A stretch of DNA of 61,936 nt, filler included, from Vermamoeba vermiformis (Eukaryota): NCBI GenBank assembly GCA_045837725.1. It is 5 parts of 5 records of this genome, joined end to end, with 100 filler letters (N's around TTAATTAATTAA, not from the genome) between each part and the next. Parts side by side here need not be neighbours in the genome. Positions count along the whole stretch, not along the records: positions 17,103 to 43,788 come from JBEWZL010000190.1; 4 more parts are not named here. One strand, 5' to 3'. The translations under genes and the position numbers were made by a program. This document shows, one piece after another, positions 17,103-43,888 of the stretch. The notes beneath the pieces were generated by a model. The model did not search any database. It saw only the letters and a list, made by a program, of their open reading frames with translations, and was not told the DNA's origin. The first letter of the stretch is position 1. Each line of letters begins with the position of its first letter.

Positions 17103-17209
17103 TATATAGCCTTTTAGGGCTTAGGGGTCTTAGGGCAAATAAAAAAAAAATGGTTAGCCTAAATTTTGCTTTATTTTTGCAGCTACAACCCAGCTGCTAG
17201 GTATAATGG

Positions 17210-17841
17210 ACTGAGAGCGTGACCAGCAGGTCACAGGGGGATGAGAGCGTGACCACCATAGACAGAAGCGTGACCAGCAGGTCACAGGGACCGAGAGCGT
17301 GACCAGCAGGTCACAGAGGGCCGAGAGTGTGACCAGCAGGTCACAGGGACTGAGAGCGTGACCAGCAGGTCACAGGGGCTGAGAGCGTGACCAACGGGTC
17401 ACAGAGGGCCGAGAGTGTGACCACCATAGACAGAAGCGTGACCAGCTGGTCATAGGGGGATGAGAGCGTGACCGCCATAGACAGAAGCGTGACCAGCAGG
17501 TCACAGGGGGATGAGAGCGTGACCACCATAGACAGAAGCGTGACCAGCAGGTCACAGGGACCGAGAGCGTAACCAGCAGGTCACAGAGGGCCGAGAGTGT
17601 GACCAGCTGGTCACAGGGACTGAGAGCGTGACCAGCAGGTCACAGGGACTGAGAGCGTGACCAGCAGGTCACAGGGGCTGAGAGCGTGACCAACGGGTCA
17701 CAGAGGGCCGAGAGTGTGACCACCATAGACAGAAGCGTGACCAGCAGGTCATAGGGGGATGAGAGCGTGACCGCCATAGACAGAAGCGTGACCAGCTGGT
17801 CACAGGGGCAGAGACAGAGGCGTGACTAGCAAGTCACAGGA
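17210..17841. repeat. GC-rich minisatellite of 21-30-nt units with palindromic core GTGACC-N4-GGTCAC and a ~270-300-bp higher-order period
   Basis: About 20 units of gagagcgtgaccagcaggtcacaggg, interleaved with gtgaccaccatagacagaagc. The block starting at 17243 recurs at 17513. Confidence 0.95.
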
Positions 17842-17860
17842 CTGTCGCCGGTCAACTCTA

Positions 17861-19601
17861 TCAGCAAAGCTTCATTTGGTCAGCGTGACGCTCAGCCATT
17901 CGACGGAATTTCTTGTTGAACTTGCGCTTTTTGCGAAGAACGGCAGACTCGGTCTTGGCATCTTGGTTGTCCCCAATCGGATTTAACCTATTTACCGTTA
18001 ATATTGCTCTACCGTGAAAATATTTTTCGACAACGTACCTCTTAAAGGCTGCATCCAGCGAGACAAATAGTACTGACTTTGGCACCGTAGTTACGGGGTC
18101 TGTTCCTGATAGCAAGCGTCGTTTCTTAGAGGGGTTTGCTATTTCGTCTTCGGCCTTCCTCTTGCCACCCATGAGGTTTGGCTGCAATACTGTAAGTCAC
18201 GGCACATCTTTTGTTCGCTGATAACTTACTACACTGAGCCACTCTTGCACTGGATTAAAACAATTTGGATCTGGTAACAAGTTTGGCTGTGTCGATTTCC
18301 AGTTGCTTGGAAGTGTATCGTTGACCCAAGGACACGTTGTATAACAAAGGCAGGGTTTAGTTCTGGCTAGCATACCAGCAACTTGCACCGGCTCAACACG
18401 GAAGCAGTGCACAGCCACGCCACGGTACGAGTCCCTTCGATGTACAAATAACAAGGCCTCTTTGAAGTCTTTCCAAGATGAGTCCATGAAGCGTTCGTAG
18501 TTGATGTCGTTGCCAATGAAATCAATCATTTGGGTCAACAGGGTAGTGCATACTTGCAGCAAGACTTTGCGATTCTTCGGTTCGGACAAGAATCGGAAGC
18601 TGTTAGCCCACGGCACCACTTCTACAAAATGCGGATTAATACTAATCCTAGTTGCTAATGTATTCGACGGCACCGGTGGCAAATGATTTGAAAGTCATTG
18701 TCACAGCCGGGCGGATCACTCAAACTAGAATTTGAAGTCTAGCTGGCGCGTCCGTCTTTGCCATGCACGATGAATTTTAAAGTTCAACGCGCACAACTAT
18801 AGGCCAACCAAGATCGATTGAAAGGTCGATCAGAGGCGAGATCGATTGACAGGTCGATCGAAAAATCAAGATCGATTTTAAAGTCGATCAGAATCAGAAT
18901 TTTAAAGTTCTGACGTGGAGGTTTAAAAGTCTCCTTCATCGTGCATAGTGAATTTTAAAGTTCACTTTGTTGGTACTTACTGAAGTGGTAATACAAACGT
19001 TGCAATACTTCGTTGACAACGCTTAAGCCAAAGCCATTGAACAGTGATTGGTTTAGCAGTGCTTCGAACAATGTACATTTCTGGAAGTATTCAGGAGTTG
19101 CGCACAGTCGCACCTCGAGGTTTGCCACAAAGGCACTCCTCTCGCTCAGTAGATCAGGACCCCACATCGGTTCCCAGGCAAGTTGTTTGCAGAACTGGAT
19201 CGCGGGTGGTCTGCTGTCCAAATAAGCAAACACAATGTCGCTATTATGAACGTGCAAGGCCCAGTATCTGTTCAATTTGCTGGATGTTGCATCTAACAGA
19301 GACGATTGCACCGTTTGAACAAATAGACCGCAGTAGGAAAGACGTATTTTCAAACAGTAGCCCCCGTCGAAAATTAGCGCCGCTTCTTTGCCTCGAGACC
19401 GTACCTATTTAATTAAATTAAATCAGTGATTATGCAGTGTAAAAATAATCGACTTATGCTTAGTAAACGCGCAGGTGCGAGCTTGTTAAATTCATCCAGC
19501 GCTGCACTGGCAAAATTCGTTGAAATTGAAGCGAAGGTATTGCCTACGAGGTTGCCATTGGCCCATTTCTCGAATAATTTGTAGATTAAAATTTCTGGCA
19601 T
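17861..19601 (-). pseudogene. NEIL1-like Fpg/Nei DNA glycosylase, copy 1, probably decaying
   Basis: MPE start, spliced VRSRGKEAALIF, WEPMWGPDLLSE and H2TH LFEALLNQSLFNGFG..VVNEVLQRL. The first intron donor reads ATAAGT, and no in-frame acceptor is visible after the repeat inserted in intron 2. Confidence 0.75.
18719..18945 (+). repeat. 227-bp inverted repeat, left copy (intronic, MITE-like, GATCGA-rich)
   Basis: Reverse complement of 20326-20552 with about four mismatches by eye. Internal 11-bp IR TGCACGATGAA/TTCATCGTGCA. Confidence 0.95.
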
Positions 19602-19966: not shown

Positions 19967-22900
19967 ATGCAAGCACGAAGACGATCTGGGCAAAAGCCTA
20001 CCGCGGTTGTGTAAGTTTTAATATTTAATTTTAATTTACGCGCAAACGCGTCATTATTATGTATTGTATACGTATTCTTATTAATAATTATTGGAATATT
20101 TCAATTATTAAAAGCAAGGATGGAATTTACAAGGATGATCGAAAATTATTAATTTATTTTCAAACCAAATTTCGAAGGGCTTATTATTAATTAAACCCCT
20201 CTTTGTTAGGAAATATTAACGGGCATATTTTTCCGGGGAAACTTTACAATTTCCTCGCGAAAAAATGTCCTAATCTGGAACGGATTTTATTCGAGTGCAC
20301 CAGCGAACTTTCCCATTCGTGTTAGTGCACGGTGAAGGAGACTTTTAAATCTCCACGTCAGAACTTTAAAATTCTGATTCTGATCGACTTTAAAATCGAT
20401 CTTGATTTTTTGATCGACCTGTCAATCGATCTCGCCTCTGATCGACCTTTCAATCGATCTTGGTTGGCCTATAGTTGTGCGCGTTGAACTTTAAAATTCA
20501 TCGTGCATGGCAAAGACGGACGCTCCAGCTAGACTTCAAATTCTAGTTTGAGCTGGACTTTAACATCCAGCGTGAGCAATTTATTAAGAGCTGAACGCTC
20601 AGTTTGCACTTGCCTCAAAGACTTACCAATCTTGGGCAAGCGTTAAAATCCGGTGCACTTTTGAAATGTCAAATGTGGATCAAGTGCACGTGCACTTGAC
20701 GGATCTTTTCCGTAAAATTAAGCCGTTGTGGCTTTTTGTATTCACATCCTTGACTTAATTACAAATTCGATCTTTCAATATCGAAATAGATGATTTTAAA
20801 CTCATCTATCCCGCAGACAACAAGATAAGAAGCTGATTGTAGCTACTTTCGCGGACATTTTCATCGTTGGGTACTCTCGGCCACCACCTGGTGGTTCCAA
20901 AGACAAATTCGTTGACGCTGTTATGCGCAGAATTAATTCGTACCCAATCAAATCCTCAAAGCACAACTTATTTTTGTTGTTGCTAGTGATGTTCGAGTAT
21001 CACGAGCTGCTGGAAAATGTCACAGATCCGCTTACTTTTCCGGTGAGTGATATTTAAATGCCGTATTAAGCAAGGCTAATCTTTATGAAACTAGGAATGG
21101 TTCAAGAAATACGGTGACGCATTTACGCACAAAACTGGTCATAAAAACACGGATCCCGGTTGGCGTTGCTTGCTTGAAACGCTTCGACAATTACCAGAGA
21201 ACTTACCCAAGTTATTAGAATTGATTCGAACGGAGGTTAGTATTATTTGGCTATGTTTGGCTATACGGACGCATTAATTACTTTCTCTTGCAGTTGATGC
21301 GTCTAAAACCCAAAGCAGCAAGCAGAGACCTTGAGCACCGCGTTTACCACAAATTGATCATTGCCCTTCGATATCAATGGTACTGCTTGCTTCCGTCTAA
21401 CTTCGACGCGTTTTGGAAGGCAACGCTTCGACATCAGGAGCACGTCGACTATACTGCGATCCCGTTTACGCTTCCTCCAGGAATTGCAGTAGACCCATCG
21501 CTAATCGCAGCAATGAATAGCGTGGTTCAAGCACCCACTGTACGCGGTACGTTGGAGGAATTCGCATTTGTTTTCATACCTAACTGTTCGCAGAGGGACC
21601 GGACCCATTCCGTGCACAGCGTGTAGCCCATCGGTTTATCAGTCAATTTAATATTGGAAAGGAGCCAATAGTAATTACGGCCGAGGTTGTTAACTTATGG
21701 AAGAGACGGTTGGATGAATCTACTCAAGCTACTTCAAACAACAACAACAACAACGTGCAGTCTTTCTTTCGCCAATCATAATACCCTTGCCAATGGTGGC
21801 TTGGAGCTGCTTGCGGAGAGTGGCCCATCAGATTTTCAAATTCCATCGGTCCGAGTCAACCTTGGCTCTGCGGATGTTTCGTTGATCAGCCAGCCTGGTA
21901 GCCCAGACCAGTGGCGTGGGGATGTACCTAATTCTCCAGACTTTCTGCAATCTCTTGACGACGTATCATTTCCGGAGTTCGAGGGATATTTTGCCGGCAG
22001 TCAGTCCCGAAAGCGCCCTTTGCTTGCAGTAAGTCCGCATTAATTGATCAGATCTCGAGCAAAATACTCACCGCTTGTAGCCTGAAGGACAAGGGCCTTC
22101 TGCTAAAAGACAAAAGATTATTGGCCGACCCAATGACGAGATGGAAACGGACAATTTGCAGCCGGTGGGTCAAAGGAGCACTGAACAGGCGTTCGAAGCT
22201 TCAACGCTTGTTACTGCAACAAACTCCTCAACACCGACAAGCAATGTGGACCCGACGAGCGCCGGTGCAAGTTCGAACACCAACACCAACAATGGTCGTA
22301 CTGCTGGCAATGACGCTAGAGCTATTACTGACCACAGAAGTCATCGCGATAGCAACAGTCGCAGTGACAGCAATAGTAGTAGCCGCAGTCGCAGTCGCGG
22401 CCCCAACAGTCGCGGCCCCAACAGTCACAACCGCAGTCGCAGCCGCAGCTACAGCAACAGTAGTAGTGGCAGCAATAGCAGCAGCAATAGCAGCAGCAGT
22501 AGTAGCAGCAGTAGCAGCAGCAGCCGCAGCAGCAGCCGCAGCTACAGCAGTAGCAGTAGCAGTAGCAGCAGCAGCAATGCTAGCAAGAAAAGCAGCCGCA
22601 GTGGAAGTAGCAAGAAGAGCAGTGGTGATAATCACGCTAACCTCGACTCGTCAACATCACTTGGTAACATGCTTGAAGACAACGCCAAAGATACTACCAA
22701 CACTCCATTGCCCTCAGTGTCGTCTACTAGTGCTGAGGACATCAGCAATCTTCCGTCTGCAACTACAATGCCAGAGACCAACCACGCAACAACTGGCCTA
22801 GTTAGTGCCCCGGGTTTTGCTGTTTCAAGTCCCGTAGCAATTGAACTAGATCATAATGACAGCGCTAGCCTTCAGCCGGTTCCAGAAACGTTTGTTCCCA

Positions 22901-23551: not shown

Positions 23552-24109
23552 GTGAGTATCGCCATGCGCATTTTAAACCTTAAAAACTAACCCCAGTCTC
23601 CCGCTTTGACTTGTAGTAAATTTGTACTGGTTTTTGCTAATAATGCGCATAATTCGGATTAAAACAACATTTATTTAAACAATTTACAATACAATGCGCT
23701 CATTTTGCAATTTGCATTGCCATTTATCAATGACAATCTGCATGAACAATGCGCATTAGCTACTGGTTATTTCGAAATTTCATAGCTCGTTTGTATTTAA
23801 TGGAAATTAATACTAACAATCCGCATGCCAATAGGCACGAACAACTTCGCACTAGATGCAGTGCGGTTAGTTTTTATGAAATTTCACTGCTCGTTCTAAT
23901 TAATATGAATTCAGATTGAAAATTCGAATTAATTCGCATGAGTTAATGCGAATGAATAATTTATTTTGCTTACCATGCGAATTGATTGTTGACCATGCGA
24001 AACTTGTTTGAATCTAGCGCATAAAAAATTAGTGAATAACGAGGTACGATGCGAATGATTAAGCTGAAAATACAAGAATTTGCGTGGTTAGTTATTGTGC
24101 TTACCGTAA

Positions 24110-24720
24110 ACTAACCTATCATTCTGATCATTCGAATTGCAGAATTTGAATCTTGCATGCAAATCGAATGAGTGAAGTTAGTTCCGTGATTACTGCTAAA
24201 CTAACCTGTAATTCGAATGAATGAGTATAGTTAATTTAAATATCAAGGCACTAACCAATCATTCTGCTCTCGCTCGAATAGTAAGAATTGCCTCAGCGGT
24301 AATTCGAATGCCTGCACTTAGTTTCGTAACTACCAATAAACTAACCTGCAATTCGCATGAATTAGTTTAGTTAATTTCAAATACAAGGCACTAACCGATC
24401 ATTCTGGCCATTCGGATGGTAAGAATTGGTCTTGCCGGTAATTCGAATGACTGGAGTTAGTTCCATGATTACCGCTAAACTAACCTGTAATTCGAATGAG
24501 TGCGTTAAGTTAATTTAATTATAATGCACTAACCAATATTTTTGCTCGTTCGCATGGAAAGAACTTGCCTCGTTGGTAATTCGAATGACTGGAGTCAGTT
24601 TCATGATTACTAATAAACTAGCCTACAATTCGCATGAATTAGTTTAGTTAATTTTAAACGTAAGTCACTAACCAATCGTGATACGAATTGAATTAATGTA
24701 CAGCATTCAATCCGGGCAAT
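24110..24720. repeat. Diverged ~139-bp tandem repeat, at least 4 copies
   Basis: An ACTAACC..T anchor recurs at about 24110, 24250, 24390, 24528 and 24667, with shared AATTCGAATG motifs. Confidence 0.85.
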
Positions 24721-26327
24721 TCGAATTACTTTGTCCGCTATAGACAGTCTACAGATTATCAATTGTTAGAATAGATTAAACAGAAATAATTATGGTTTGC
24801 TTACAGTAGTGAGCGACATTTTTACCGTAAGATCTTACGGTATTAAGCAACTTTGCCGCACAATGCTACTTATCTGGCAGGGTCATAAACGCGCTCCCTG
24901 GCATTGTACTGCATGTCGTCCGAGTCCACAGCGAGTCTTGGGTATCAACAAGCTCCAGGTCGTGATGACTGAGAGGTATGAGTGCGTAGAGGGATCATTC
25001 CCTAATGCACTGTTAGTATTATGAACCGAGCCTGGCGGACTTGTTGGACTGAATGTTGAGTTTAACGAGTGCTTGACTTACCGCCGCCTAGTAGGTGCCA
25101 ATGAAGATACGAGTGTCACGCGCAGCGAACAACGCGAGAAGATGCGCATGATCCACCAGAGCAGTGCGAAGGCCTCACAGCACCTAGCGCAACGACGATG
25201 GCATTCCAAGTGCGAGATGGCAGCGATGGCTCTACGCGGTAAGTACAAGCACAGGCATTCGTCAAGACTGCGGCAATGGAATTGACCAACTTGCGCTTGG
25301 CAAACGCAGTGATCAACATTGATTACATCGCGTACCGTGTACCGTGGATGCGTTGAAAATACACTTGTAAAACTCGCTGTCAAGGCACGGAAGCTAGAGA
25401 TCAAGTTCAGGGACACGCAGTGTTGTTGGCCAAGAACTGGAGCTGCCTGCTTAGCAGTGCTCGAGTGTGTGTTCGTAGTAGAGTGTGTTGTCGTTGAAGG
25501 TAGTGCTGCCACTGCTGCCGGCCACTCCAGCTTGCCGTTGTAAAACCTGGTGGCGGTATTGGCGAGCACCCGTCCCACGCCTTGCTGGACGTGAATAATC
25601 AGGTAATTGTTACAACAAGTAAAATTTTGATCCGATCCGCGTTGAATCAATCCGTGTACACTTAATAGAGGCTTTATGATTCTATTAAATTTACAACGTC
25701 ATTAGCTATTACAATTGGCTTCTAATTGCGCTTACCAAGGTTAGAACAATAAAACGATGTTGTTTGCCGAGCGAGCGATCTAGATCCGTAACACTAGGCC
25801 TCAATACCCTGAATAAACCATCAGAGAGTTTAAAATATTACCTAATTTATATCCATACTTACAAGCTGCTATCTACGTGCAAAACTACAGATCAAACCGT
25901 ACTTGGACAAATGATCCGATCCGGATCAGAACAAGCATTGACGTATTTATTCTAATGATAATAACGAATAAATGTCATGGTTTATTAACTATAATTAAAC
26001 TTACGAATTCATTCATATAGCTGGTATCGATTTAGGTAAGGAGGATCAGATCTCGTTTTTGAAGATCGCATTTTCTACCAAATCAAATCTATTTGAGAAT
26101 AATTATGTTAATACTTAAATTATTATTCCAATAGCGTTACATTTACCCTTGTTTAAATTGAAGACAAAACCAAGATCCGCACTTAACTGATCTGTGTCTA
26201 TATTAAATAAACGAATGAGAATAGTTACAATAATGTAAGGAAGCGCTGTATATAAATTTATTATTTTTGTTTGTTTTTAAATTATATTGAATATTAACTT
26301 GAGGTTGCAAAAGACCGTTACATTTCA

Positions 26328-29185
26328 TTACATCTTCTTTGACTTTTTGGCTTCCTTTTCATCTTCGGACTTCGGCTCCAACGCGAGAGATATCTTACGC
26401 TTCTCGCCAGTGTTCCGTTGGGCACTAGGAAACAGGTTGACTCGGAATATGGAGCCCCATCTCTTCTCTGATTCCTCGTCACTATCCGGAGGCGGAAAAG
26501 GGCCTTTGCGAGCAGGTTTTGGAGGTGGGCCGCTCTTGTTTGATGCCCGCGGCGTCTTCTTGGCAGTATTGCCGAGCAAATTCTGGGACTTCTTTGGCAG
26601 AGGTGGTTCGACTCTGACTTGTTCGTTGACAGAGCTCTTAGATGTACTAGTCGTTGGTTTGACGGGAGGAGCAGGAGCTCTGTCAAGCTTCACTTCAGGC
26701 AATACGAGCACTGGGTCTGTCGTTGGTTTGACGAGAGGAGCAGGAGTTCTGTCAAGCTTCACTTCAGGCAATACGGGCTCTGGGTCTTCTCGTACAGGAG
26801 AGAGCGGCAAAGTTTGACTCGGGATATGGAAGGACTCGTTGATATTAGTGGACTTGCTCATTACAGATCTGGAGTTTGACGAGGAGACCGATGGGCTAGG
26901 AGAGCACGACGAACTGGAGCTGCTCGACTCGGAAGACGACGAAGAGCTGACTTCGTCAGAATTACTTTCATCAGCTGAGCTGGACTCGAACTCCGAGGAT
27001 GGAGCTTCAAATGAAGACCAAGAAGCTTCTTCTTCATCGTTGTCGTCTTCTCCATCGTCTTCATCGTCTTCATCTTCTCCCTCTTCGTCTTCGTCGTCCT
27101 GCTCCGACGGTTCCTCCTTGTTGAGCGCGCTTTTAGACGACTTTGCTGCCGGGCTGCTGCTGCAGGATCTCCCTCCTACCGAAGACCAGTATGCAGAAAC
27201 CAAGTGCATGAAGGGGATCATTCTGTAGCCTGGAAAATCTTTGACCGAGCCATCCTTGAAGGCCACCGTGAACTCAACCTTCGAGCGAGAAACAAATCGG
27301 TGCTTGACAATTCGATCGATGCTCTCTGCGAAGTCGTCGTTCTTCTTCTCGTACTGCTTCTGAAACTTGTTGAGCATTTTTTCCATGGAGCCTGTTGGCA
27401 GCATACCGACAGTGTTATTGACGGTTTTCAACGTGTTTTGATTGACATCAGAGCGATGAACTCTGTCGTAGTGAGTGGAGAGCACATCGCTAGAGGTGTT
27501 TATCAACGCAGCGTGCTTTTCCGTGAAGAACTTGGCAATGCCCTCTTGATCGAGCTTCAAATGATGCTCGGTGAGGAACGTGACCAAAGCACGACGGAAG
27601 TAAGTGCATGAGATTGTTCTCCCAGGAAAGTAGGAGGCCACGATGCTTTGCACAAGATTTGACAAGCCTTGATATCCTAATGGACAGAAATTCGTTAGTT
27701 ATATTACTTAAACGCAGTGGGCGTGCTTACTCATTGCATTCCCGACTCTGTTAATCCAAACAGATTCGACGCCCTTGTTCGCAACTATTGGCAGATAGCT
27801 CTCGATCCATACTCGCAAAGGAATAGAGAACGAGTTGGGAAGAACGAAGAAGTCCGTCTTAGCGCGCTTGACTTTTTCACGAGGTGGAAAAAACTTTGCA
27901 TCTCCTCCTTCGAAGACGACGTTCTAATACTTAAATAAGTAATTGATCGATAATGATAAAGAATAATTTAAACTTACTTGCTTCGTCAGCGAAGCACCAA
28001 ACTGACGTCTTTGTCCACCTAAGTGCATCAGAGTCAGCAGGTACAAATGACCCATGAACAGGGTCATTTCGTCTCTGGAAAGTTTTGACTCGCGTGCTTC
28101 TCCGTAGATGAATGCGCTATCTCGTTCGATCATTTGCGTGATCTTGTCGCACACAGACTCGTTGAGTTGACGTAGCTCAGTTTGGTCCAACCACTCACCG
28201 AGTAGCATCAGAGTTTCGGCAACAGTTTTGTTGGCGTTAGACTTGGCTATGTCTTTTGCTTCTGTTAAGACAATGTTAATTTCAGGTTGAAAAATTGAAA
28301 CTGAAGCTTACTCGCCGCAGGTATTTTCAAGATATCATTCACAGCGTCGATACGGGCACGATAGTTAGCAAAACTTTCCAATCCCTGTATTGACGTTATA
28401 GTTAGACAGGTATGGATATACCGACTAAGACTTACGTGCAAGTACTTCAAGAACATACGAATGATCTTGATCACATTGGCAATTGTCGCTGGCTTTTTCC
28501 CCGTTGACTCATACCAACAAGGGAAAGCAGTGGCAACTCTAGTGTCGAGCAAGTGCCGAACGTCAACGATTTTTGGCTGAATGACATCTGCGACGAATCT
28601 GAAGTAGATGGCCAGTGCAGATCTGGTCTCGCCACCCCTGTCTGAGCCACTATTGCTCAGGAGACCCTGCTTGACCTTGGTCTGGTCCTCAGTAGAGCCG
28701 TGAAGCCGAGTCAGCCTTTTGCGCTCGATGTATTTTTCGAATAAAGAACCAACGCAAAAGTACTTCACAGATACCTTTTCGAGAGGAAATCCCTGAAGCC
28801 TTTTTGGCGCACCAGTTTGATCGTTACCTAGTAAGAATAATAGATTGATTAGATAATGATCTGTCAAAGTTATTGACTGTTAACTTACGCGTTAACGAAG
28901 GGAAAACTCGTTCTTCAAGGTCATCAGGCACGTCGTCCATGTCGCAAACGATTGGAGCGTCAGTGAACTGAGCCAATGCGAGCTTCGCCTTGGCTATCTC
29001 TCTTTCCAATTTTTTAACTTCTACTGCAAGTGATTAGAATTGAAGCTATATTCCAATTAGCTAACCGACTAAATGAACTTACCTTTAGAAGAAGGCGACG
29101 AGTTTCGTTTTATTTTTTTTTCTTTCTAAAACAATATTGCGTTAATTACGATATTGAAAGTAAGACGTTTGTTTACCTTCTCCAT
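26328..29185 (-). CDS. Intron-containing tyrosine recombinase with a chromodomain-like module and a low-complexity tail
   Basis: Spliced product has core-binding helix KKPATIANVIKIIRMFLKYL, box I LMHLGGQRRQ, Lys in REKVKR, box II TYFRR...AALINTS..VL..HY, then IDRIVKHR...VEFTVAFKDG...LVSAYW. Confidence 0.82.
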
Positions 29186-29357
29186 GTAGAAAAACGATAA
29201 ATGGATTAAGAAGTAAACCGATTGTATTCCAAAATTGCGCACGTGATCATCTAGCGAGATGATTGGTCAGACGTGCACGTGAGCTAATTGGTGGAAAACT
29301 GACTTACGCACAAAAAAGGTAAGTATACGTCCGTGATTGAATTGTGATTTTCAGACA

Positions 29358-29768
29358 ATGCAACCAATACTTACAACAATGGCAGAACCGAAACAAGATG
29401 ACTGGTCCGACTTCACGGAGGAAGAATGCATTATGATCGACGACTTGCTAAGAATAGCGCGAGAAGATAATATTGCAACCAACCCGTATTATTCGCAGGA
29501 TGAAGAAGCAACCCAAAAAGTTGATGATTATGACGAAACTGAATACGTGACGCACCCGGAGCCAGTTGAACCTGGTTTCGATTTTATTCATTTATTAGAA
29601 GAAAACGACGAATGTTCTAGCCCTGCTTCATCCACTGATGATGAAGTACTTACGCAAAGGCCAAGTATTAAGCGAGTCCGAGAAATGGCCCGATTGTTTG
29701 GCCTAACAATGCCTGATAATGAAGACTCGAAATCCCTACCCGGAGAAACTAATGTTAATTCGAAATGA
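29358..29768 (+). CDS. Small acidic hypothetical protein divergent from the YR gene
   Basis: Open Asp/Glu-rich ORF with an apparent 5'UTR intron (gtaagt...tttcag) just before the ATG. Confidence 0.55.
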   Translation: MQPILTTMAEPKQDDWSDFTEEECIMIDDLLRIAREDNIATNPYYSQDEEATQKVDDYDETEYVTHPEPVEPGFDFIHLLEENDECSSPASSTDDEVLTQRPSIKRVREMARLFGLTMPDNEDSKSLPGETNVNSK

Positions 29769-29834
29769 ACTAAAAATAAAATTTCCTTTTTTAAATATAT
29801 TCAAATTTGTTATTATTGATTAAGTAACAACAAG

Positions 29835-31054
29835 ATGGAAAGGTATGTATTAATAAGCAATTCGAATTGTCTAACTATTAACGAAGAAAATACCTGTGCC
29901 ATTGTTCTGATAAGCACGGTCATTTCTATGTACATACCGATGATTTTTCGGAGCAGTGGCTTGGAAAGGGAGGCGTTGCTGGCTTGTTGGGCATGAGCAA
30001 AAACTCGTTCTGCTCAAAGTTGTCTTTGTACGCTCCAAACGCTCCCATCGGAACTTATCCGTTCAATAACGTCGTCTTGGAGCATTCAAAAGAGCTTGGC
30101 GCCACAAGACCAACTGTGTTTTACACTCTCGAACAAGCCAATGCAATCATCAAGCAATGGTTGACGAGACCAGGCGGGAAAAAGAGTTGGCCGATTAGAC
30201 TTTCAAGTGCTCGTGCATTTCTCGCCAGCCTGGACAGAATATCGTTAGTTGAGATTAAAGACGGTAACAATAGCTACTTTAAAATAGAACGTACTGAGAA
30301 GCAGGGTGATAAGATTGCTGCAATTCAATACGTTCATGAAACTAACAACAAAGCCGCAGCAAGACAAGAAAATAATAGTGAACCAAGCTTGTCGCCTGAT
30401 TCGAAAGAGGTGTTACTTACGCTTATGGATATGTACCAAGAGAGCAATCCGGAAGAAGCCGATATTCCGGTCGAAGAGAAGCAATTTCAAAAGAGAACTG
30501 ACGAAGAACCTGCCCGAGAGCTGCACGTGCATGAACCCAAGCCAAATAACAATGCACAAGTGCAATTGGAGGGCCAAAATCAAAAACAAGCGTATACTTC
30601 GGAGCAAAGTTGTCCCGAGATAATTGACGTTGATTCCTACGAGCCGCCAGAGAAAGGCAAGCTATACAATTGTTAAATTACGATAGAATAACATATATTA
30701 GTGTGGCAACAAACCTCGCTCGAATCTCTAATGTCCGCCAAATCGAAGAGAAAAGCTTCAGCAAGTGATAGCAAGACGAGCAAGCGAAGAAAGGAACTTG
30801 AGCCTGTCTTTGATTTTTCGGCGCTTTCAAAACCTTTCAAGGCACCTCGGAAAATCTCCGCCGCACCAACGCCCGAAGAGGAAACCAAAGAACCAACACA
30901 AAGCGAAGCTGAGCCCGAAAGCGTCAAGCCTAACACTGAAACGTTAACGAACAATGATACCGTGACGCAAGCTCAAACTCCACAAGATTCAGTCGAATCA
31001 ATTTACAAAAAATTAGCTAAAAATTTCCCAGACGACGATGAAGATTTTCAATAA
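29835..31054 (+). CDS. Multi-exon hypothetical protein with a possible N-terminal HTH-like DNA-binding domain and a disordered tail
   Basis: Spliced MERKYLCHCSDKHGHFYVHTDDFSEQWLGKGGVAGLLGMSKNSFCSKL; NLS-like KSKRK and KRRKE. Confidence 0.6.
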
Positions 31055-31956: not shown

Positions 31957-33770
31957 TCAGATCGAAACGGGTAGCTTTTGTTTAATTTTACAAAATTTGT
32001 GGAAGTGCTTCTTGCGCTTCCGCTTAATTCTATTGATCCTAGAGTTATTATTAGAACTCGACGGACTCAGCTGGAGCACGGTCGTTGAAGGATCCATCGA
32101 TCCGACATCTGCTTGGTTCTCTTGACGCTGATCTAACCTAAATAAATGGCTTCAGTAAAATTACTACAAAAATAGCTACTACTAGCTAACACTTACTCTA
32201 CGCTATGTACTTCGCTAGCAGACTTTGTTGAACTTTCGATCTCATTGCCGAGATCTTCCGCAAGCCACTCAACTCCGTCAAAGCAACGCTCCACGAAGAT
32301 TGGCTTTTTTGGCTTTGCATTAGCCTCCTTCAATTTTTTTTTAGGAGATTCGTTAGGATCCGAATCTGCCTTTCGTTTTTGTCGCTCCAACTGGGTTTGC
32401 TTTGACGCCAATTCCTTTTTGGCTGCCGTAGTACGCATTATTACGCTCTATAAAGAATTATTTAATTTTAAATGAGGCAAATAAGAAACAAACTTACGGT
32501 TGGATCGGCTAGATGCAGCTTTACCCGAGCAGTTGCCGAGTACCAGTGGTACATGCCCACGTTAAGACTATTCTCGGTCATTTTAGTTGTCGTAGATCGT
32601 TGCCAGCCGGGTGGAAGTGTAACTAATGATTTAGAAGGGCTATCGCCAGGCACGTCTGAATCCGATCCAGATCCAGGCTTAGATGATAGCTCTTGGTCAG
32701 ACAAGGCATTATCATCATCGACTGCGAAGCAGCAAGTCGTGTAGCACTTGTTCCTGCCTTTAGTATAACAGTGAACCTGCGCATAAATATTAGACTGGGC
32801 CGTTTATAATTACGTTAACTTTTTACCTTGTTTTTACCGCTCTTATTCTTGCGAAACACAAGCAAAAACAAGTTTGAAAAATCCAGCCACTCTTGTTCCA
32901 AGTAACGAGAGCAATCAAAGTCGGTACCAATATAATCGAGAATCTGTCGAACAAATTCCGAAGTGAACACGCGCAAAGCCTTCACGTTGCATTGCTTCGA
33001 AAGAAATGCTAGTGCGTTTGTAGTAGGCGGTACTCCTATATTAAATAAATTATTATTACAATTAAAAAATAATTGAGTAGTAGTTTTTAAAAAAAACAAA
33101 TAAAAAAGGGTAACTAACCATAATGCAAGTACAATCGCTCCAGTGTCTCGTTTATAGTGTATGCACCAAGTCCATTAAACAGTGCTTGATCGTGCATAAC
33201 TTCGAACAAGCTCTTATCAAAAGCTTTGGGCCTTGCCGCTAGCTCCCTTTCCAAATGCTCGGTCCAAGTAGTCGCTTCGGACACCAAGTCAGGACTTCGT
33301 GTAGGATCCCATTGAAGGGACGAGCTGAACGCTATGGTAACGAAGTTCGGAAATTGGGCAGCTTCGACGATGAACAGGCAATTGTTCAGGTCCTTGGAGC
33401 GAAGGACAAAATTAACGTGCTCGTTGAAAGGGTAGCTCTTTACGGCAAGCAGTGGCTTCACGACAAAGTAGCCACCGAGTGCGAGATGCACACGGAGACA
33501 AGAGCCATCCTCGAATATCAGGGCAAGCTCCTTTCCCCGCGCAGTTGCCTAAAAATAACACGTTAACATTAAAAACACAAAATTTACGACAGCACTTACG
33601 GAGACTAGCTTTTTGCTGCATTTCTTATTAAATTCTTCGACGACTTCAGGCTGATTCGGATCTTTAGTCAGTGCGTAGTCTCTGCACTTGATCAATTTGT
33701 CGAATTCGATGCCGCGAAGTCTTTCAGTAAGCCAAAGAGCGAATAGTTTGTATTCGGGTAATTCAGGCAT
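31957..33770 (-). CDS. NEIL1-like Fpg/Nei DNA glycosylase/AP lyase, copy 2, apparently intact
   Basis: MPELPE start (catalytic Pro2/Glu3), spliced ATARGKELALIF..HLALGGYF, WDPTRSPDLVSE and KAFDKSLFEVMHDQALFNGLGAYTINETLERL..GVPP. These match the NEIL1 pattern KAFDRPICEALLDQRFFNGIGNY. Confidence 0.88.
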
Positions 33771-41111: not shown

Positions 41112-41271
41112 TGAAGCGTGTGATTTCTGTAACGAATTGCGAATATCGTTGGAACGATATTGCGCATCGTTAGGGAAATGTCCCTTTCGATAGCATAAAT
41201 AGCGCTGTAACTATCACAATAAACGTCTTCTTATCCTACTCCTTGTCTTACAATCATTTCATTTGGTTCCG
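41112..41271 (+). promoter_or_regulatory. 3' part of a 5' LTR (left boundary uncertain) and primer-binding site
   Basis: CATAAATA at ~41194, AATAAA at ~41218, LTR-like end CA at 41260-41261, then TT and TGGTTCCG, which is complementary to a tRNA 3' end (Glu-like). Confidence 0.6.
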
Positions 41272-41287
41272 AACATACCGGTCAACA

Positions 41288-42307
41288 ATGGAGCGAGATC
41301 TCGTCTCTCCGTTCAAGAAACTGTCACACGTGCCTATTTATAAGGAGCGGGAGGATATGAATATTGACTCTGCTAAAGTCAATAGTTTCATTGCTGCCGT
41401 TGATCCGATTCCTGATCCTGACACGCAACGTCAACAATGCTTTGAATGGTTCACCAACCTAGCTCTCACCGTTCAAATCTTCAGTCTCAACTCTGCCGAG
41501 CTTCTACGTGCTCTGATGACTCGATTGGCTTCTCACAAGCACCACATCCAAAAGTGTCTCAATGTTGACGATCCGCACAAAATTCTCGAGAATCTTTCTG
41601 CAAGCATTCTCAGAGTTAAGGCCTACGCTAGTCTCGATGAAATCCTCAATTTTAGAATGACTTTTAACGAAACTGTTGAAAGTTATTTTAATCGAGCGGT
41701 GGAACTTACAACCCGCTCAGATCTTAAAAGCGAATCTCAACAACTCGATCTGATCCTCAAAGGTTTGCCCAACGACTGGAAAGCTCAAATGGTCACGTTT
41801 CCCGAAGCCAAGAATGTAGAAGAACTCTACCAGCAACTCATTCAACTCGAAGATCGTCGCAGAAAGTTATTCCGACCTAAATCCGGATCTGAACAGAGAA
41901 ATGTCAAACGAACGCCAGAAAAATCCAAAAATTCTGGTAAGCAACAAAACGGTTCCAATTCTACGGCCAATATCACCTGCTTTGCTTGTGGTGGTAAAGG
42001 TCATTATTCGTACGAGTGCAACGTTGCATCTGACACTGCACGCGAAACTTTGCCCTTCGATCCTCGCAACGTCACAGTTCGCAAGAAAGATTATCGTCCC
42101 TCGCCATCAGCCCCTTCTCAGCCCCAGAAGAGTTCAACTCCGTCAGATACGTCTCGCTATGTTGCTCGCTCGCCCTACAAACCACCTGGTCAACGCCCAC
42201 ACGACATCGCCGAAGTCCACGAGATGAATTATGCTCCTCAACATGTCCAATCAGCCCCTAACAACAACAACGTGAGATCTGTGCCTGGATCTCGTCCGGA
42301 AAACTAG
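41288..42307 (+). CDS. gag: Ty3/gypsy Gag
   Basis: ETVESYFNR..EL capsid-like motif, ILKGLP and CCHC knuckle CFACGGKGHYSYEC. Confidence 0.88.
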   Translation: MERDLVSPFKKLSHVPIYKEREDMNIDSAKVNSFIAAVDPIPDPDTQRQQCFEWFTNLALTVQIFSLNSAELLRALMTRLASHKHHIQKCLNVDDPHKILENLSASILRVKAYASLDEILNFRMTFNETVESYFNRAVELTTRSDLKSESQQLDLILKGLPNDWKAQMVTFPEAKNVEELYQQLIQLEDRRRKLFRPKSGSEQRNVKRTPEKSKNSGKQQNGSNSTANITCFACGGKGHYSYECNVASDTARETLPFDPRNVTVRKKDYRPSPSAPSQPQKSSTPSDTSRYVARSPYKPPGQRPHDIAEVHEMNYAPQHVQSAPNNNNVRSVPGSRPEN

Positions 42308-43788
42308 AACGCGACAAGAGTCAAGGCTCAACTGTTGTCGCGCAGTTATTAGAGCCTATGGATAAGAACAATGCGACCGACCACAACAACAAACCCGACA
42401 AGCTAAGCCACATGTATCCGTCTCGAAATTAATGACCCTGCAGTGGATGCATTGGTTGACTCAGGAGCGTCTTTCTCTTTAGTGTGAGTCCCGATGTCTA
42501 CAATGCCCTACCCAACAAACCACCCCTCCAACCTCGATTCGCTTGCTTGGGAGCGCTCAACGATACGCCGATCCCGAACATTGGTGAAATTTATGGATCA
42601 GTACGTATTAATTTGGTCACCTGGATAATACCAATTATTATCGAACCCCATGTATGCGCTCGCAATTTATTCTAAACAAAGATGTTCCTCAGAAAATATC
42701 AAGCGTTACTAAGATCAAGACAACAATCAACTGGAAACACTTCTGGCTGACCCCAAGCACTCGCCCGTTACTCAAGAACGACAATTCATGAATATTCCGC
42801 CAGTCAGCTCCAAATTCATCAAAAGCTCTATTTGGACGAAGAATTAGTTTTGGATCCGCGCCATTTCCGAATCACTTATCAACTTCCAAACATTCATTGG
42901 CTCATTCTCTGGCATAGTAAAACCAAACAGACGTATGCCTTCCAGACGCCTCTTCAAAGCTTCAGTTGGTCGTACTCTTAGTGCTGTCCGCAACGGAGTA
43001 ATGTACGTTCAATTTCTAAATATGGAATATCACGCCGTTACTATTCCTGCTGGTACTTTAATTGGACACTTTGTGCCCTACGATGACATCATCCTTCAAC
43101 ACCATCAAGGTCAAATCGCTTCTGTCGACAATGCTCAAGTCCCTGCCGCTCAGAAAGAAGAATTCTTCAAGAAATTGGATCACTCGTTCCGAAAGTCCAA
43201 GATCAACACTGTTCAGTCACTCGCTCTTAAAGAAGTCTTGTTTCACTACCGTGATTTATTTGCCGACAATGACGAAGGAATGACAAATGTGTCAAACGTC
43301 AAATGTCACATCAATTTGACAGATCCGAATTCTCAGCCAGTTCAAGAACGACTCCGACGCACAACGCCACAACAGAAAGCCGTAATTGATGAAGAGATAG
43401 ATTATATGCTTAAGAACAACGTAATAGAACCGTCTGAATCGCCATGGGCCGCGCCTGTCCATCTCGTCAAAAAGAAGAACGGAACATTTCGCTTTTGTAT
43501 CGACTTTAGAGGGCTCAACGCCCTTACCAAGAAGGACGCCTATCCCCTGCCACGTATCGACGACACCCTGGATTCACTCGCAGGCATGGTTTACTTCACT
43601 ACACTGGATGCACGAAAAGGCTATTGGCAAATCCTCATGAACGTCAACGACCGCGAGAAAACAGCTTTTGTATCACACAGAGGCTTGTTTCAATTCAAAC
43701 GAATGCCTTTTGGTTTAACGAACGCACCAGCAACATTTCAGCGAATGATGGATCTCGTACTTAGCGGTTTGCTCTATGAAATATGCTT
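42308..43788 (+). pseudogene. pol: Ty3/gypsy Pol (protease and RT); frameshifts and stops in the protease region, cut by the contig end
   Basis: ALVDSGASFS, SPWAAPVHLVKKK.GTFRFCIDFRGLN, YPLPRIDD, LDARKGYWQI and MPFGLTNAPATFQR. Confidence 0.92.
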
Positions 43789-43888
43789 NNNNNNNNNNNN
43801 NNNNNNNNNNNNNNNNNNNNNNNNNNNNNNNNTTAATTAATTAANNNNNNNNNNNNNNNNNNNNNNNNNNNNNNNNNNNNNNNNNNNN
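43789..43888. other. Artificial contig linker
   Basis: N run with TTAATTAATTAA. Confidence 0.98.

Follow-up and report, generated by a model that had tools for sequence, protein, structure and literature searches.

How transposons that move by a tyrosine recombinase, such as Cryptons and Starships, choose their insertion sites is largely unknown, and the targeting device that is understood best among retrotransposons is the chromodomain. The two meet in the Enterprise-family captains of Starships (Kirc and others), which combine a tyrosine recombinase with a CHROMO domain that is proposed to guide insertion-site choice (PMC8092012, PMC11162782). A further case is presented by a gene of Vermamoeba vermiformis (assembly GCA_045837725.1), located on the minus strand at 26328..29185 of a 61,936 nt stretch of DNA, called the window, in which five parts of the genome are joined by filler and positions 17,103 to 43,788 come from JBEWZL010000190.1. 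We read the locus as an intact, spliced gene for an 824-aa, Crypton-like eukaryotic tyrosine recombinase, in which a chromo-type domain follows the catalytic domain and would tether the enzyme to chromatin; taken as a whole, tethering role included, this is the best explanation, with a probability of about 0.5. Its parts differ in strength, and there is little doubt that the gene, the recombinase fold and the fusion are all real.

The Starship captains (DUF3435, Pezizomycotina) resemble the window protein in being eukaryotic transposon-type recombinases whose chromodomain lies on the C-terminal side of the catalytic domain, and the Kirc order of recombinase, zinc finger and chromodomain is echoed by relatives of the window protein in which a zinc finger stands beside a chromo-like module. 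In contrast to the captains, the window family has no DUF3435 match, its module begins 46 aa past the catalytic Tyr with no zinc finger in between, the module is invisible to Pfam Chromo, and no giant cargo element is evident. A full-text literature search, in which subscription papers were not covered and passages were checked in the likeliest papers, found no fusion of a tyrosine recombinase to a chromodomain outside Starships. The Starship precedent therefore reduces the novelty of the fusion; what is new here is a Crypton-like lineage, without a DUF3435 match and unseen by Pfam, that carries a cage-degenerate chromo-type domain directly after its catalytic domain. Such a second lineage, with a conserved domain, would show the association to recur among eukaryotic tyrosine recombinases.

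Several other systems share individual traits with the locus. Cryptons, like the window gene, are intron-bearing, stand-alone tyrosine recombinases with no reverse transcriptase nearby (the gene contains no such domain, and the only one in the window lies at 42848-43837, on the other strand); encoding neither a reverse transcriptase nor a methyltransferase sets Cryptons apart from DIRS, Ngaro and PAT. They also have a first Arg box of the GxQRRE type and C-terminal accessory domains that differ between lineages. In the supplementary alignments of Kojima and Jurka 2011, one SGQRRE occurs in a sequence of the CryptonF alignment, and the Asn-Thr-Ser motif of the window family does not occur in these alignments, which hold no CryptonS sequences. 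CryptonF is defined by a C-terminal GCR1_C domain and CryptonS by an unnamed conserved C-terminal region, and Cryptons are bounded by terminal direct repeats of 5-6 bp (PMC3212892); the window family differs from CryptonF in lacking GCR1_C, and it has no DUF3504 match either. Chromoviral (Ty3/Gypsy) integrases also carry a chromo-type domain at the C-terminus, and their group II chromodomains, reported only from plants, are without the first and third cage aromatics (PMC3605345), the same two that are absent from the window module. However, theirs is a DDE integrase, and the window enzyme is a tyrosine recombinase. GEN1/Yen1 offers a cage-degenerate chromodomain on a Holliday-junction enzyme, with a helix adjoining the cage region and a structural match to the window module (Z 6.3), although its catalytic domain is an unrelated Rad2/XPG nuclease and the contact with DNA, shown for GEN1, is conjectured for the window module. 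Finally, cpSRP43 is the best sequence-profile match of the module (E 2.3e-6), and the chromoshadow domains of Chp2 and Swi6 are its best structural matches; cpSRP43, HP1, Swi6 and Chp2 are cellular adaptor proteins, whereas the window module sits on a recombinase and has a single long C-terminal helix.

The DNA around the recombinase gene is of eukaryotic type, with short GT..AG introns. The coding region comprises eight exons, stop codon included, on the minus strand: exons 1-4 at 29185-29177, 29125-29083, 29020-28889 and 28827-28436, and exons 5-8 at 28384-28312, 28261-27978, 27923-27731 and 27676-26328. The spliced frame is open for 824 codons, from an ATG at 29185 that has an in-frame stop on its 5′ side to a stop codon at 26328-26330. 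Introns were initially predicted as GTAAG...YAG and then compared with public sequencing runs over 26000-30800, where RNA-derived contigs, from the root metatranscriptome X3 and from X4 (a run under another organism label, whose kind is guessed as RNA), have joints with CT..AC ends (GT..AG on the minus strand) at 27676/7-27729/30, 27924-27977, 28262-28311, 28384/5-28434/5, 29021-29082, 29126-29176 and 29299-29374. In total, six of the seven coding-region introns are confirmed by RNA contigs; the intron at 28828-28888, outside their coverage, is a prediction, and the intron ending at 29021 measures 62 nt by its RNA joint versus 59 nt as initially predicted. The joint 29298/29375 in X3, likewise with CT..AC ends, defines one more intron of 76 nt (29299..29374, minus strand) within the 5′ untranslated region, and the transcript reaches upstream past 29375.

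The last coding exon is 1.35 kb long. Its stop-to-stop frame (26328-27698, 456 codons) contains both the THYDR motif with the catalytic Tyr and the chromo-like module; the two are held in one uninterrupted exon and the fusion is therefore real, not an artefact of joining. The peptide quoted in the preliminary description lies on the minus strand, from FAESID, starting at 27332, to the W of SAYW, ending at 27186. That description had its range begin at 27665, which is merely the first TTG of a bacterial-style open reading frame (ORF), the exon itself starting at 27676; its spacing of about 45 aa between the catalytic HY and the module is borne out, as the module (from residue 491) begins 46 residues past the Tyr of THYDR (residue 445). 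Three plus-strand ORFs (26281-26817, 26818-27228 and 27015-27611) were dropped as gene candidates, being antisense to a spliced, conserved coding exon and giving low-complexity translations only.

From N to C terminus, the protein is laid out as a coiled coil, a helical region like a core-binding domain and a catalytic domain with Arg, Lys, Arg and Tyr445, followed by a conserved helix, a linker helix, a chromo-type domain of ~52 aa, a long disordered tail rich in acidic residues and Ser, and a basic C-terminal motif. The recombinase fold was assessed on a full-length relative, P0019 (795 aa, modelled from a 7-sequence alignment); exons 4, 6, 7 and 8 are collinear with P0019 183-258, 306-374, 387-442 and 445-604, and are collinear with P0037 as well. 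The P0019 model has a mean predicted local distance difference test (pLDDT) score of 49, with residues about 300-517 reaching 75-91. A VIA-align search with this model against 48,161 chains placed XerA at Z 14.0 (165 aligned residues, root-mean-square deviation (rmsd) 3.2 A), XerH at 13.6, Cre at 12.7 and XerD at 11.9; the 23 chains that reach Z>=8 comprise tyrosine recombinases, type IB topoisomerases and the regulators SroF and MrpR from phages, both presumably recombinase-like, and nothing else. The Crypton-derived proteins QRICH1 and Ndc10 are also among the matches (Z 6.7 and 6.6). By Foldseek the model has nine matches at E<=0.001, with XerH at E 1.9e-4, and the rows listed consist entirely of recombinases and topoisomerases IB. 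The identification as a tyrosine recombinase, already made in the preliminary description, is thereby upheld by the fold of a collinear homologue.

Catalytic roles were assigned by the order of motifs and the known tyrosine-recombinase consensus, rather than by a residue-level structural alignment. On the minus strand, GGQRR (residues 298-302, 28005..28019) is read as the first catalytic Arg box, and GxQR[RK] is kept in the four relatives whose sequences extend over this stretch of alignment A4; REKVKR (residues 326-331, 27864..27881) contains the Lys read as the catalytic Lys of the beta-hairpin, the corresponding P0019 K393 being invariant in A4 (exon 7 aligns with P0019 387-442); YFRRA (residues 401-405, 27588..27602) is read as the second Arg box, with P0019 R470 invariant in A4 and F26, R27 and R28 of this region invariant in alignment A5; and LINTS...THYDR (residues 433-447, 27462..27506) spans the invariant Asn-Thr-Ser motif and Tyr445. 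Within the latter, A55, L57, N59, T60, S61, Y69 and R71 are invariant in 11 sequences and P0019 Y510 is invariant in A4, and across the family alignments the Lys, the second Arg and the Tyr do not vary. Judged from these motifs, the window protein is a tyrosine recombinase that is probably active. Pfam is silent on all of this: at E<=1 to 10, Phage_integrase (PF00589) matches neither the window exon pieces nor the 17 relatives scanned, the same pieces and relatives have no match to DUF3435, DUF3504 or GCR1_C, and DUF3435 was also absent at E<=1 from full-length P0009, P0019 and P0037 and from the window pieces. A look-up of ESM features did point to PF00589 clusters (score 0.90), which is taken as a lead only. 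At the Pfam level, neither the recombinase nor the chromo domain of this family is annotated, and similar fusions are therefore probably under-counted.

Relatives were sought by an exhaustive HMMER search with the first 167 residues of the last exon against 1.84 billion representatives, which gave 16 proteins at E<=0.001, 7 of them at E<=1e-10; two of the 16 (P0008 and P0014) were removed as unrelated repeat proteins on inspection, leaving a family of 14 members that includes the 99%-identical P0001. The product names of their clusters say nothing beyond 'hypothetical protein'. Word-indexed protein searches recovered only the near-identical P0001 from the single protein and three proteins from alignment A2, and the module alignment A3, with longer lengths allowed, recovered ten proteins, one of them new (P0033). 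A metagenome scan with alignment A5 added four loci, three of which (L001-L003) represent one locus that is 99.7-99.9% identical end to end; none of the four shows element ends. A scan of viral contigs gave no relative. As an observation in its own right, the 345-aa P0033 recurs identically on 22 metagenome contigs, the longest of 576,630 bp, and members of its cluster occur on up to 25, a recurrence that reflects either one common organism sampled repeatedly or a multi-copy element. Two sub-families differ in their C-terminal parts. P0027, P0032, P0033 and P0037 add a zinc finger of RanBP2 type (Pfam E 2.1e-8 in P0027) and, by eye, a second chromo-like stretch at the extreme C-terminus; P0009, P0010 and P0019 end in a beta-rich domain (P0019 723-794, in a low-confidence model). 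The recombinase clade seems to gather reader-like modules.

The chromo-like module itself (residues 491-542, 27177..27332, minus strand) can be aligned across 11 members of the 14-member family (P0001-P0007, P0009-P0011 and P0013) and is also carried by P0032 and P0033, beyond those 11; it is an old and integral part of the recombinase clade. In the AlphaFold2 model from an 11-sequence alignment, strands at model residues 119-129, 132-139 and 144-148 (27320-27288, 27281-27258 and 27245-27231) are followed by a C-terminal helix at 149-166 (27230-27177), all with pLDDT 84-91, while the truncated recombinase part of the same model has pLDDT near 50. The strand-strand-strand-helix order appears again in the P0019 model (559-605, pLDDT about 60), which was built from a different alignment. 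Against the PDB, the top Foldseek rows are the Swi6 chromoshadow domain (E 0.02-0.05, template-modelling (TM) score 0.75-0.82, rmsd 1.6-1.7 A), followed by the Chp2 chromoshadow domain and the Rhino chromodomain (24% identity); over solved chromo and chromoshadow domains the TM scores are 0.69-0.82 and the rmsd 1.4-1.9 A. Of the 43 rows listed, chromo, chromoshadow, cpSRP43 or CHD domains make up 35, and the remaining 8 consist of PH domains of Rtt106 or of long alignments of poor quality. VIA-align, which is independent of Foldseek, ranks the Chp2 chromoshadow domain on top (Z 7.8, 59 aligned, rmsd 2.4 A), and, among the 28 chains at Z>=5, New1 and eEF3 are the only ones without a chromo-type title; the aligned region in these two is presumably their chromodomain insert.

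Sequence profiles lead to the same fold. A profile of 12 modules searched against 177,635 PDB sequences matches chromodomains of cpSRP43 at E 2.3e-6, 2.1e-4 and 7.7e-4, followed by CHD5 (1.1e-3), CDYL2 and CBX1 (about 0.02), and also CBX5, Swi6 and MPP8. Within the alignment of these 12 modules, one Gly is invariant, strand 2 has Tyr or Phe in 12/12 sequences and the helix does so in 12/12, and the W-x-P motif has its Trp in 7/12 and its Pro in 8/12. A chromo-type (Royal-family) fold is accordingly very likely for the modelled module, as had been proposed from the sequence pattern in the preliminary description; AlphaFold2, Foldseek, VIA-align and the PDB profile search agree in predicting it with high confidence, and the segment is conserved in the family. 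The outcome that would have refuted the proposal according to that description, no predicted chromo-like fold and no conservation in homologues, thus did not come about. Structural matching of the model does not separate a chromodomain from a chromoshadow domain, a homodimer that binds PxVxL-type peptides (Z differences are under about 1). A homodimer prediction for the module returned a score of 0.00 and no verdict, which weighs neither way on dimerisation, and Foldseek found no meaningful match to the module among viral predicted structures (BFVD).

Between Tyr445 and the module lies a segment (27321..27461, minus strand) consisting of a conserved helix with a VN..TL..VN motif and a poorly conserved linker helix (residues 471-494); the model places the helices at 75-89 and 95-118, and L82 and N86 of the former are invariant. 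Mean pairwise identity falls from 0.41 in the catalytic part and 0.35 in the post-Tyr helix to 0.23 in the module, 0.19 in the low-complexity tail and 0.15 in the linker, and by identity alone the module would not be set far apart from the tail (0.23 versus 0.19). The tail (26403..27176, minus strand) is rich in acidic residues, Ser and Pro (residues 546-800 hold 49 D+E, 55 S and 33 P among 255), and its end is marked by the basic motif KRKISLAL (26379..26402, minus strand), whose family pattern, K-K/R-x-K/R-I-S-L-S/A-L, is seen by eye in the window protein, P0002, P0005, P0007 and P0013 past an otherwise unalignable tail; it could be a nuclear localisation signal combined with a short interaction motif. 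The DNA encoding the tail also contains a 69-bp tandem duplication (26650-26787, 94% identical) that doubles a Pro-rich segment of 23 aa.

In Cre and related recombinases, a C-terminal helix is donated to the neighbouring subunit. The conserved helix after Tyr445 would be its counterpart, and the chromo-type domain, which comes after one more linker helix, would then sit peripherally on the synapse. There it may act as an accessory tethering module outside the recombinase-DNA complex, holding the enzyme on its chromatin substrate by non-canonical binding of a peptide or partner, such as a histone tail or another chromatin protein, and so would bias where recombination or integration happens, with no reading of trimethylated lysine 9 of histone H3 (H3K9me3) through a Y-W-Y cage. 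Counting in favour of tethering are the central cage aromatic, which is kept, the stacking of reader-like modules in relatives (the RanBP2 zinc finger of P0027) and the closest sequence match, cpSRP43 CD2, which we take to be a peptide-binding chromodomain. We infer peptide or chromatin tethering as the preferred function of the module, and hold it tentatively, at somewhat less than even odds.

A number of results weigh against the overall reading. For expression, the species' own RNA-seq (X22 and X24, ~1.85 billion letters read each) contributes just 3 and 4 partial reads; for mobility, neither a second copy of the gene nor element termini nor a target duplication turned up in the window, where only short repeats of chance level flank the gene. 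The consensus of tyrosine recombinases has a His in the HxxR box and a His or Trp about 9-10 residues before the Tyr, and both His positions vary among active recombinases. In the window family, the HxxR His is replaced by Tyr or Thr, and an invariant Asn-Thr-Ser stands where Xer and Cre have Gly-His or Trp; with both consensus His positions substituted, catalysis is therefore something that we only infer. The three most distant family members (P0012, P0015 and P0016) are without the module and have other C-terminal sequence. The fold assignment has its own soft points, as Foldseek gives the module no PDB match at E<=0.001 (best 0.02), and a VIA-align Z under 8, which includes the top value of 7.8, is rated middling; the VIA-align result draws its weight from the uniformity of the list and from coverage of the full domain. 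Tudor domains of KDM4 match the module profile at E 3.7e-4, near the chromodomain scores, and the subtype within the Royal family is therefore not fixed. Pfam Chromo (PF00385), the profile search by which the preliminary description had proposed to check the module, stays under threshold in the window pieces and in all 17 relatives; its best score is 11.3 bits (E 0.34, cutoff 25.1), in the relative P0032, where the same stretch has sub-threshold matches to Tudor_5 and DUF7141, and the P0032 module alone has zero matches among PDB sequences by phmmer. Finally, there is the cage. Its three positions were mapped through the cpSRP43 alignment and the known HP1 pattern, and they are aromatic in 0/12, 9/12 and 0/12 module sequences, the third being an invariant Gly or the adjoining small polar residue; the degenerate aromatic positions remarked on in the preliminary description thus recur across the family. 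The module keeps the core structure typical of chromodomains, along with the central aromatic, and lacks the first and third aromatics of the Y-W-Y methyl-lysine cage as defined in PMC3605345. With positions 1 and 3 never aromatic, canonical, HP1-like reading of H3K9me3 is therefore unlikely, as judged from sequence.

Four accounts of the module have to be compared. The resemblance to chromodomains could be due to chance, with a small beta-rich linker being called chromo through a prediction artefact of a shallow alignment; the alignment has just 11 sequences, Foldseek E values are 0.02 or weaker, Pfam fails and the single-sequence PDB search with P0032 is empty. But three partly independent lines concur (the profile at E 2.3e-6, Foldseek and VIA-align), the topology is repeated in the P0019 model from a different alignment, and what we take to be the chromodomain core is kept (Tyr or Phe of strand 2 in 12/12, W-x-P, L-V, and Tyr or Phe of the helix in 12/12), which leaves this account very improbable. 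The account given in the preliminary description, by which an HP1-type reader of H3K9 methylation steers a tyrosine-recombinase transposon into heterochromatin, convergently with chromoviruses, draws on the predicted chromo fold, on the good match to the H3K9me3-binding chromodomain of Rhino (24% identity, rmsd 1.6-1.7 A), on the central cage aromatic in 9/12 sequences and on a like idea published for the Enterprise-family captains (PMC11162782). It is nevertheless improbable, given cage positions that are aromatic in 0/12 sequences at 1 and 3 (position 3 being Gly or small polar), a Pfam Chromo score under threshold, and a setting with ordinary genes on both sides, in which the nearest recognisable transposable element is ~12 kb off.

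More room has to be left for a function like that of GEN1, in which the chromo-type domain would serve as a DNA clamp that grips one arm of duplex DNA in the synapse or Holliday junction and makes catalysis more efficient, with no reading of chromatin. Tyrosine recombinases act through Holliday junctions, GEN1 chromodomains are among the VIA-align matches (6grb_A, Z 6.3; 5t9j_B, Z 4.4), a long helix leads straight into strand 1 of the module, and the module is mildly basic (8 K+R versus 5 D+E). GEN1 has Leu and Pro in place of the rim aromatics, a preceding helix closes its cage, and its chromodomain contacts DNA, no binding of histone peptides having been found (PMC5039027); in the window module family, too, two cage positions are non-aromatic. 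However, the GEN1 matches are no better than those to HP1, Chp2 and Rhino, the nearest matches by sequence are the chromodomains of cpSRP43, CDYL2 and CBX, which we take to be peptide binders, and DNA-contact residues could not be mapped. The DNA clamp therefore stands behind tethering, as a possibility that we doubt without dismissing. In either case, the ~52-aa module with its preceding helix is a small, foldable system for comparing non-canonical chromatin reading with GEN1-like DNA binding. A wider proposal, which is unlikely and a shade less credible than the clamp by itself, would see a widespread and unnoticed clade of Crypton-like recombinases, apart from Starship captains, with a cage-less chromo-type domain that has been integral since before the module diverged to 13-25% identity; the domain would clamp a DNA arm of the Holliday junction as in GEN1, or would make trans contacts with KRKISLxL that assemble the tetramer, and some members may be host-domesticated. 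One and the same histone-reader fold would then have been taken up for the handling of DNA structure by two unrelated enzymes that process junctions.

Whether the gene belongs to a mobile element or to the host is a separate matter, and a host-domesticated gene is compatible with any of the domain mechanisms above. Ndc10, QRICH1 and ZMYM are host genes derived from Crypton-like elements, and the window gene could likewise be a single-copy cellular gene from such an element, whose product would bind chromatin or DNA or would carry out site-specific recombination under regulation. Pointing that way are the single copy in 62 kb without terminal repeats and among ordinary neighbours, the division of the coding region into eight exons, at least two of its intron positions being common to L002, a relative of 33% identity, the correctly spliced transcripts in a run with a different organism label and in an RNA library from the environment, and the structural matches of P0019 to QRICH1 and Ndc10, both of Crypton origin. 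The domestication of Cryptons is, moreover, well documented, but the DUF3504 genes have lost most of the tetrad (PMC3212892), unlike the window family, in which the catalytic Arg, Lys, Arg and Tyr do not vary at identities as low as 20-30%. Further, the family is sparse and patchy and its C-terminal accessory modules are shuffled, as is typical of elements, and expression in the species' own RNA-seq is near nil. On balance, the gene is slightly more probably encoded by an element, and domestication is a serious, though lesser, possibility.

Besides the recombinase gene, the window includes ordinary genes for an RSN1-type channel, ThrRS, an ABC ATPase and an F-box/leucine-rich-repeat protein, and its sole recognisable transposable element is a remnant of long-terminal-repeat type at 41174-43837 (plus strand), ~12 kb from the recombinase gene, with a gag zinc knuckle at 41174-42304 (E 5.2e-5) and a reverse transcriptase at 42848-43837 (E 2.4e-18). 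No integrase or chromodomain was recognised in this remnant, and the ORFs further downstream have no Pfam match. The statement in the preliminary description that the recombinase lies among other transposable elements is therefore weak, since the nearest one is ~12 kb off and ordinary genes share the window.

Some further features of the region were recorded. Two paralogous sets of ORFs (18431-19601 and 32845-33770, both on the minus strand, 32-55% aa identity by tblastx) flank the recombinase gene, the first about 7 kb below it and the second about 3.7 kb above; they resemble the N-terminal and H2TH regions of Fpg/Nei-type DNA glycosylases, with a Pfam Fapy_DNA_glyco match at E 0.02 for one. 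An inverted repeat of 227 bp (18719-18945 / 20326-20552, 98% identical) encloses ~1.4 kb, including part of the first Fpg-like ORF, and may be a foldback insertion or one of terminal-inverted-repeat type. A tandem array at 24088-24677, with about four copies of a ~139-bp unit, lies 1.6 kb past the stop codon of the recombinase gene on its downstream side, and another array, which is degenerate, is found at 17206-17844. Upstream of the recombinase gene, at 29882-30800, a plus-strand ORF of 264 codons that looks like coding sequence for a protein (29882-30676) is crossed by two minus-strand GT..AG joints of the RNA contig X3 (30229-30419 and 30662-30714), indicating either a spliced minus-strand transcript or antisense transcription.

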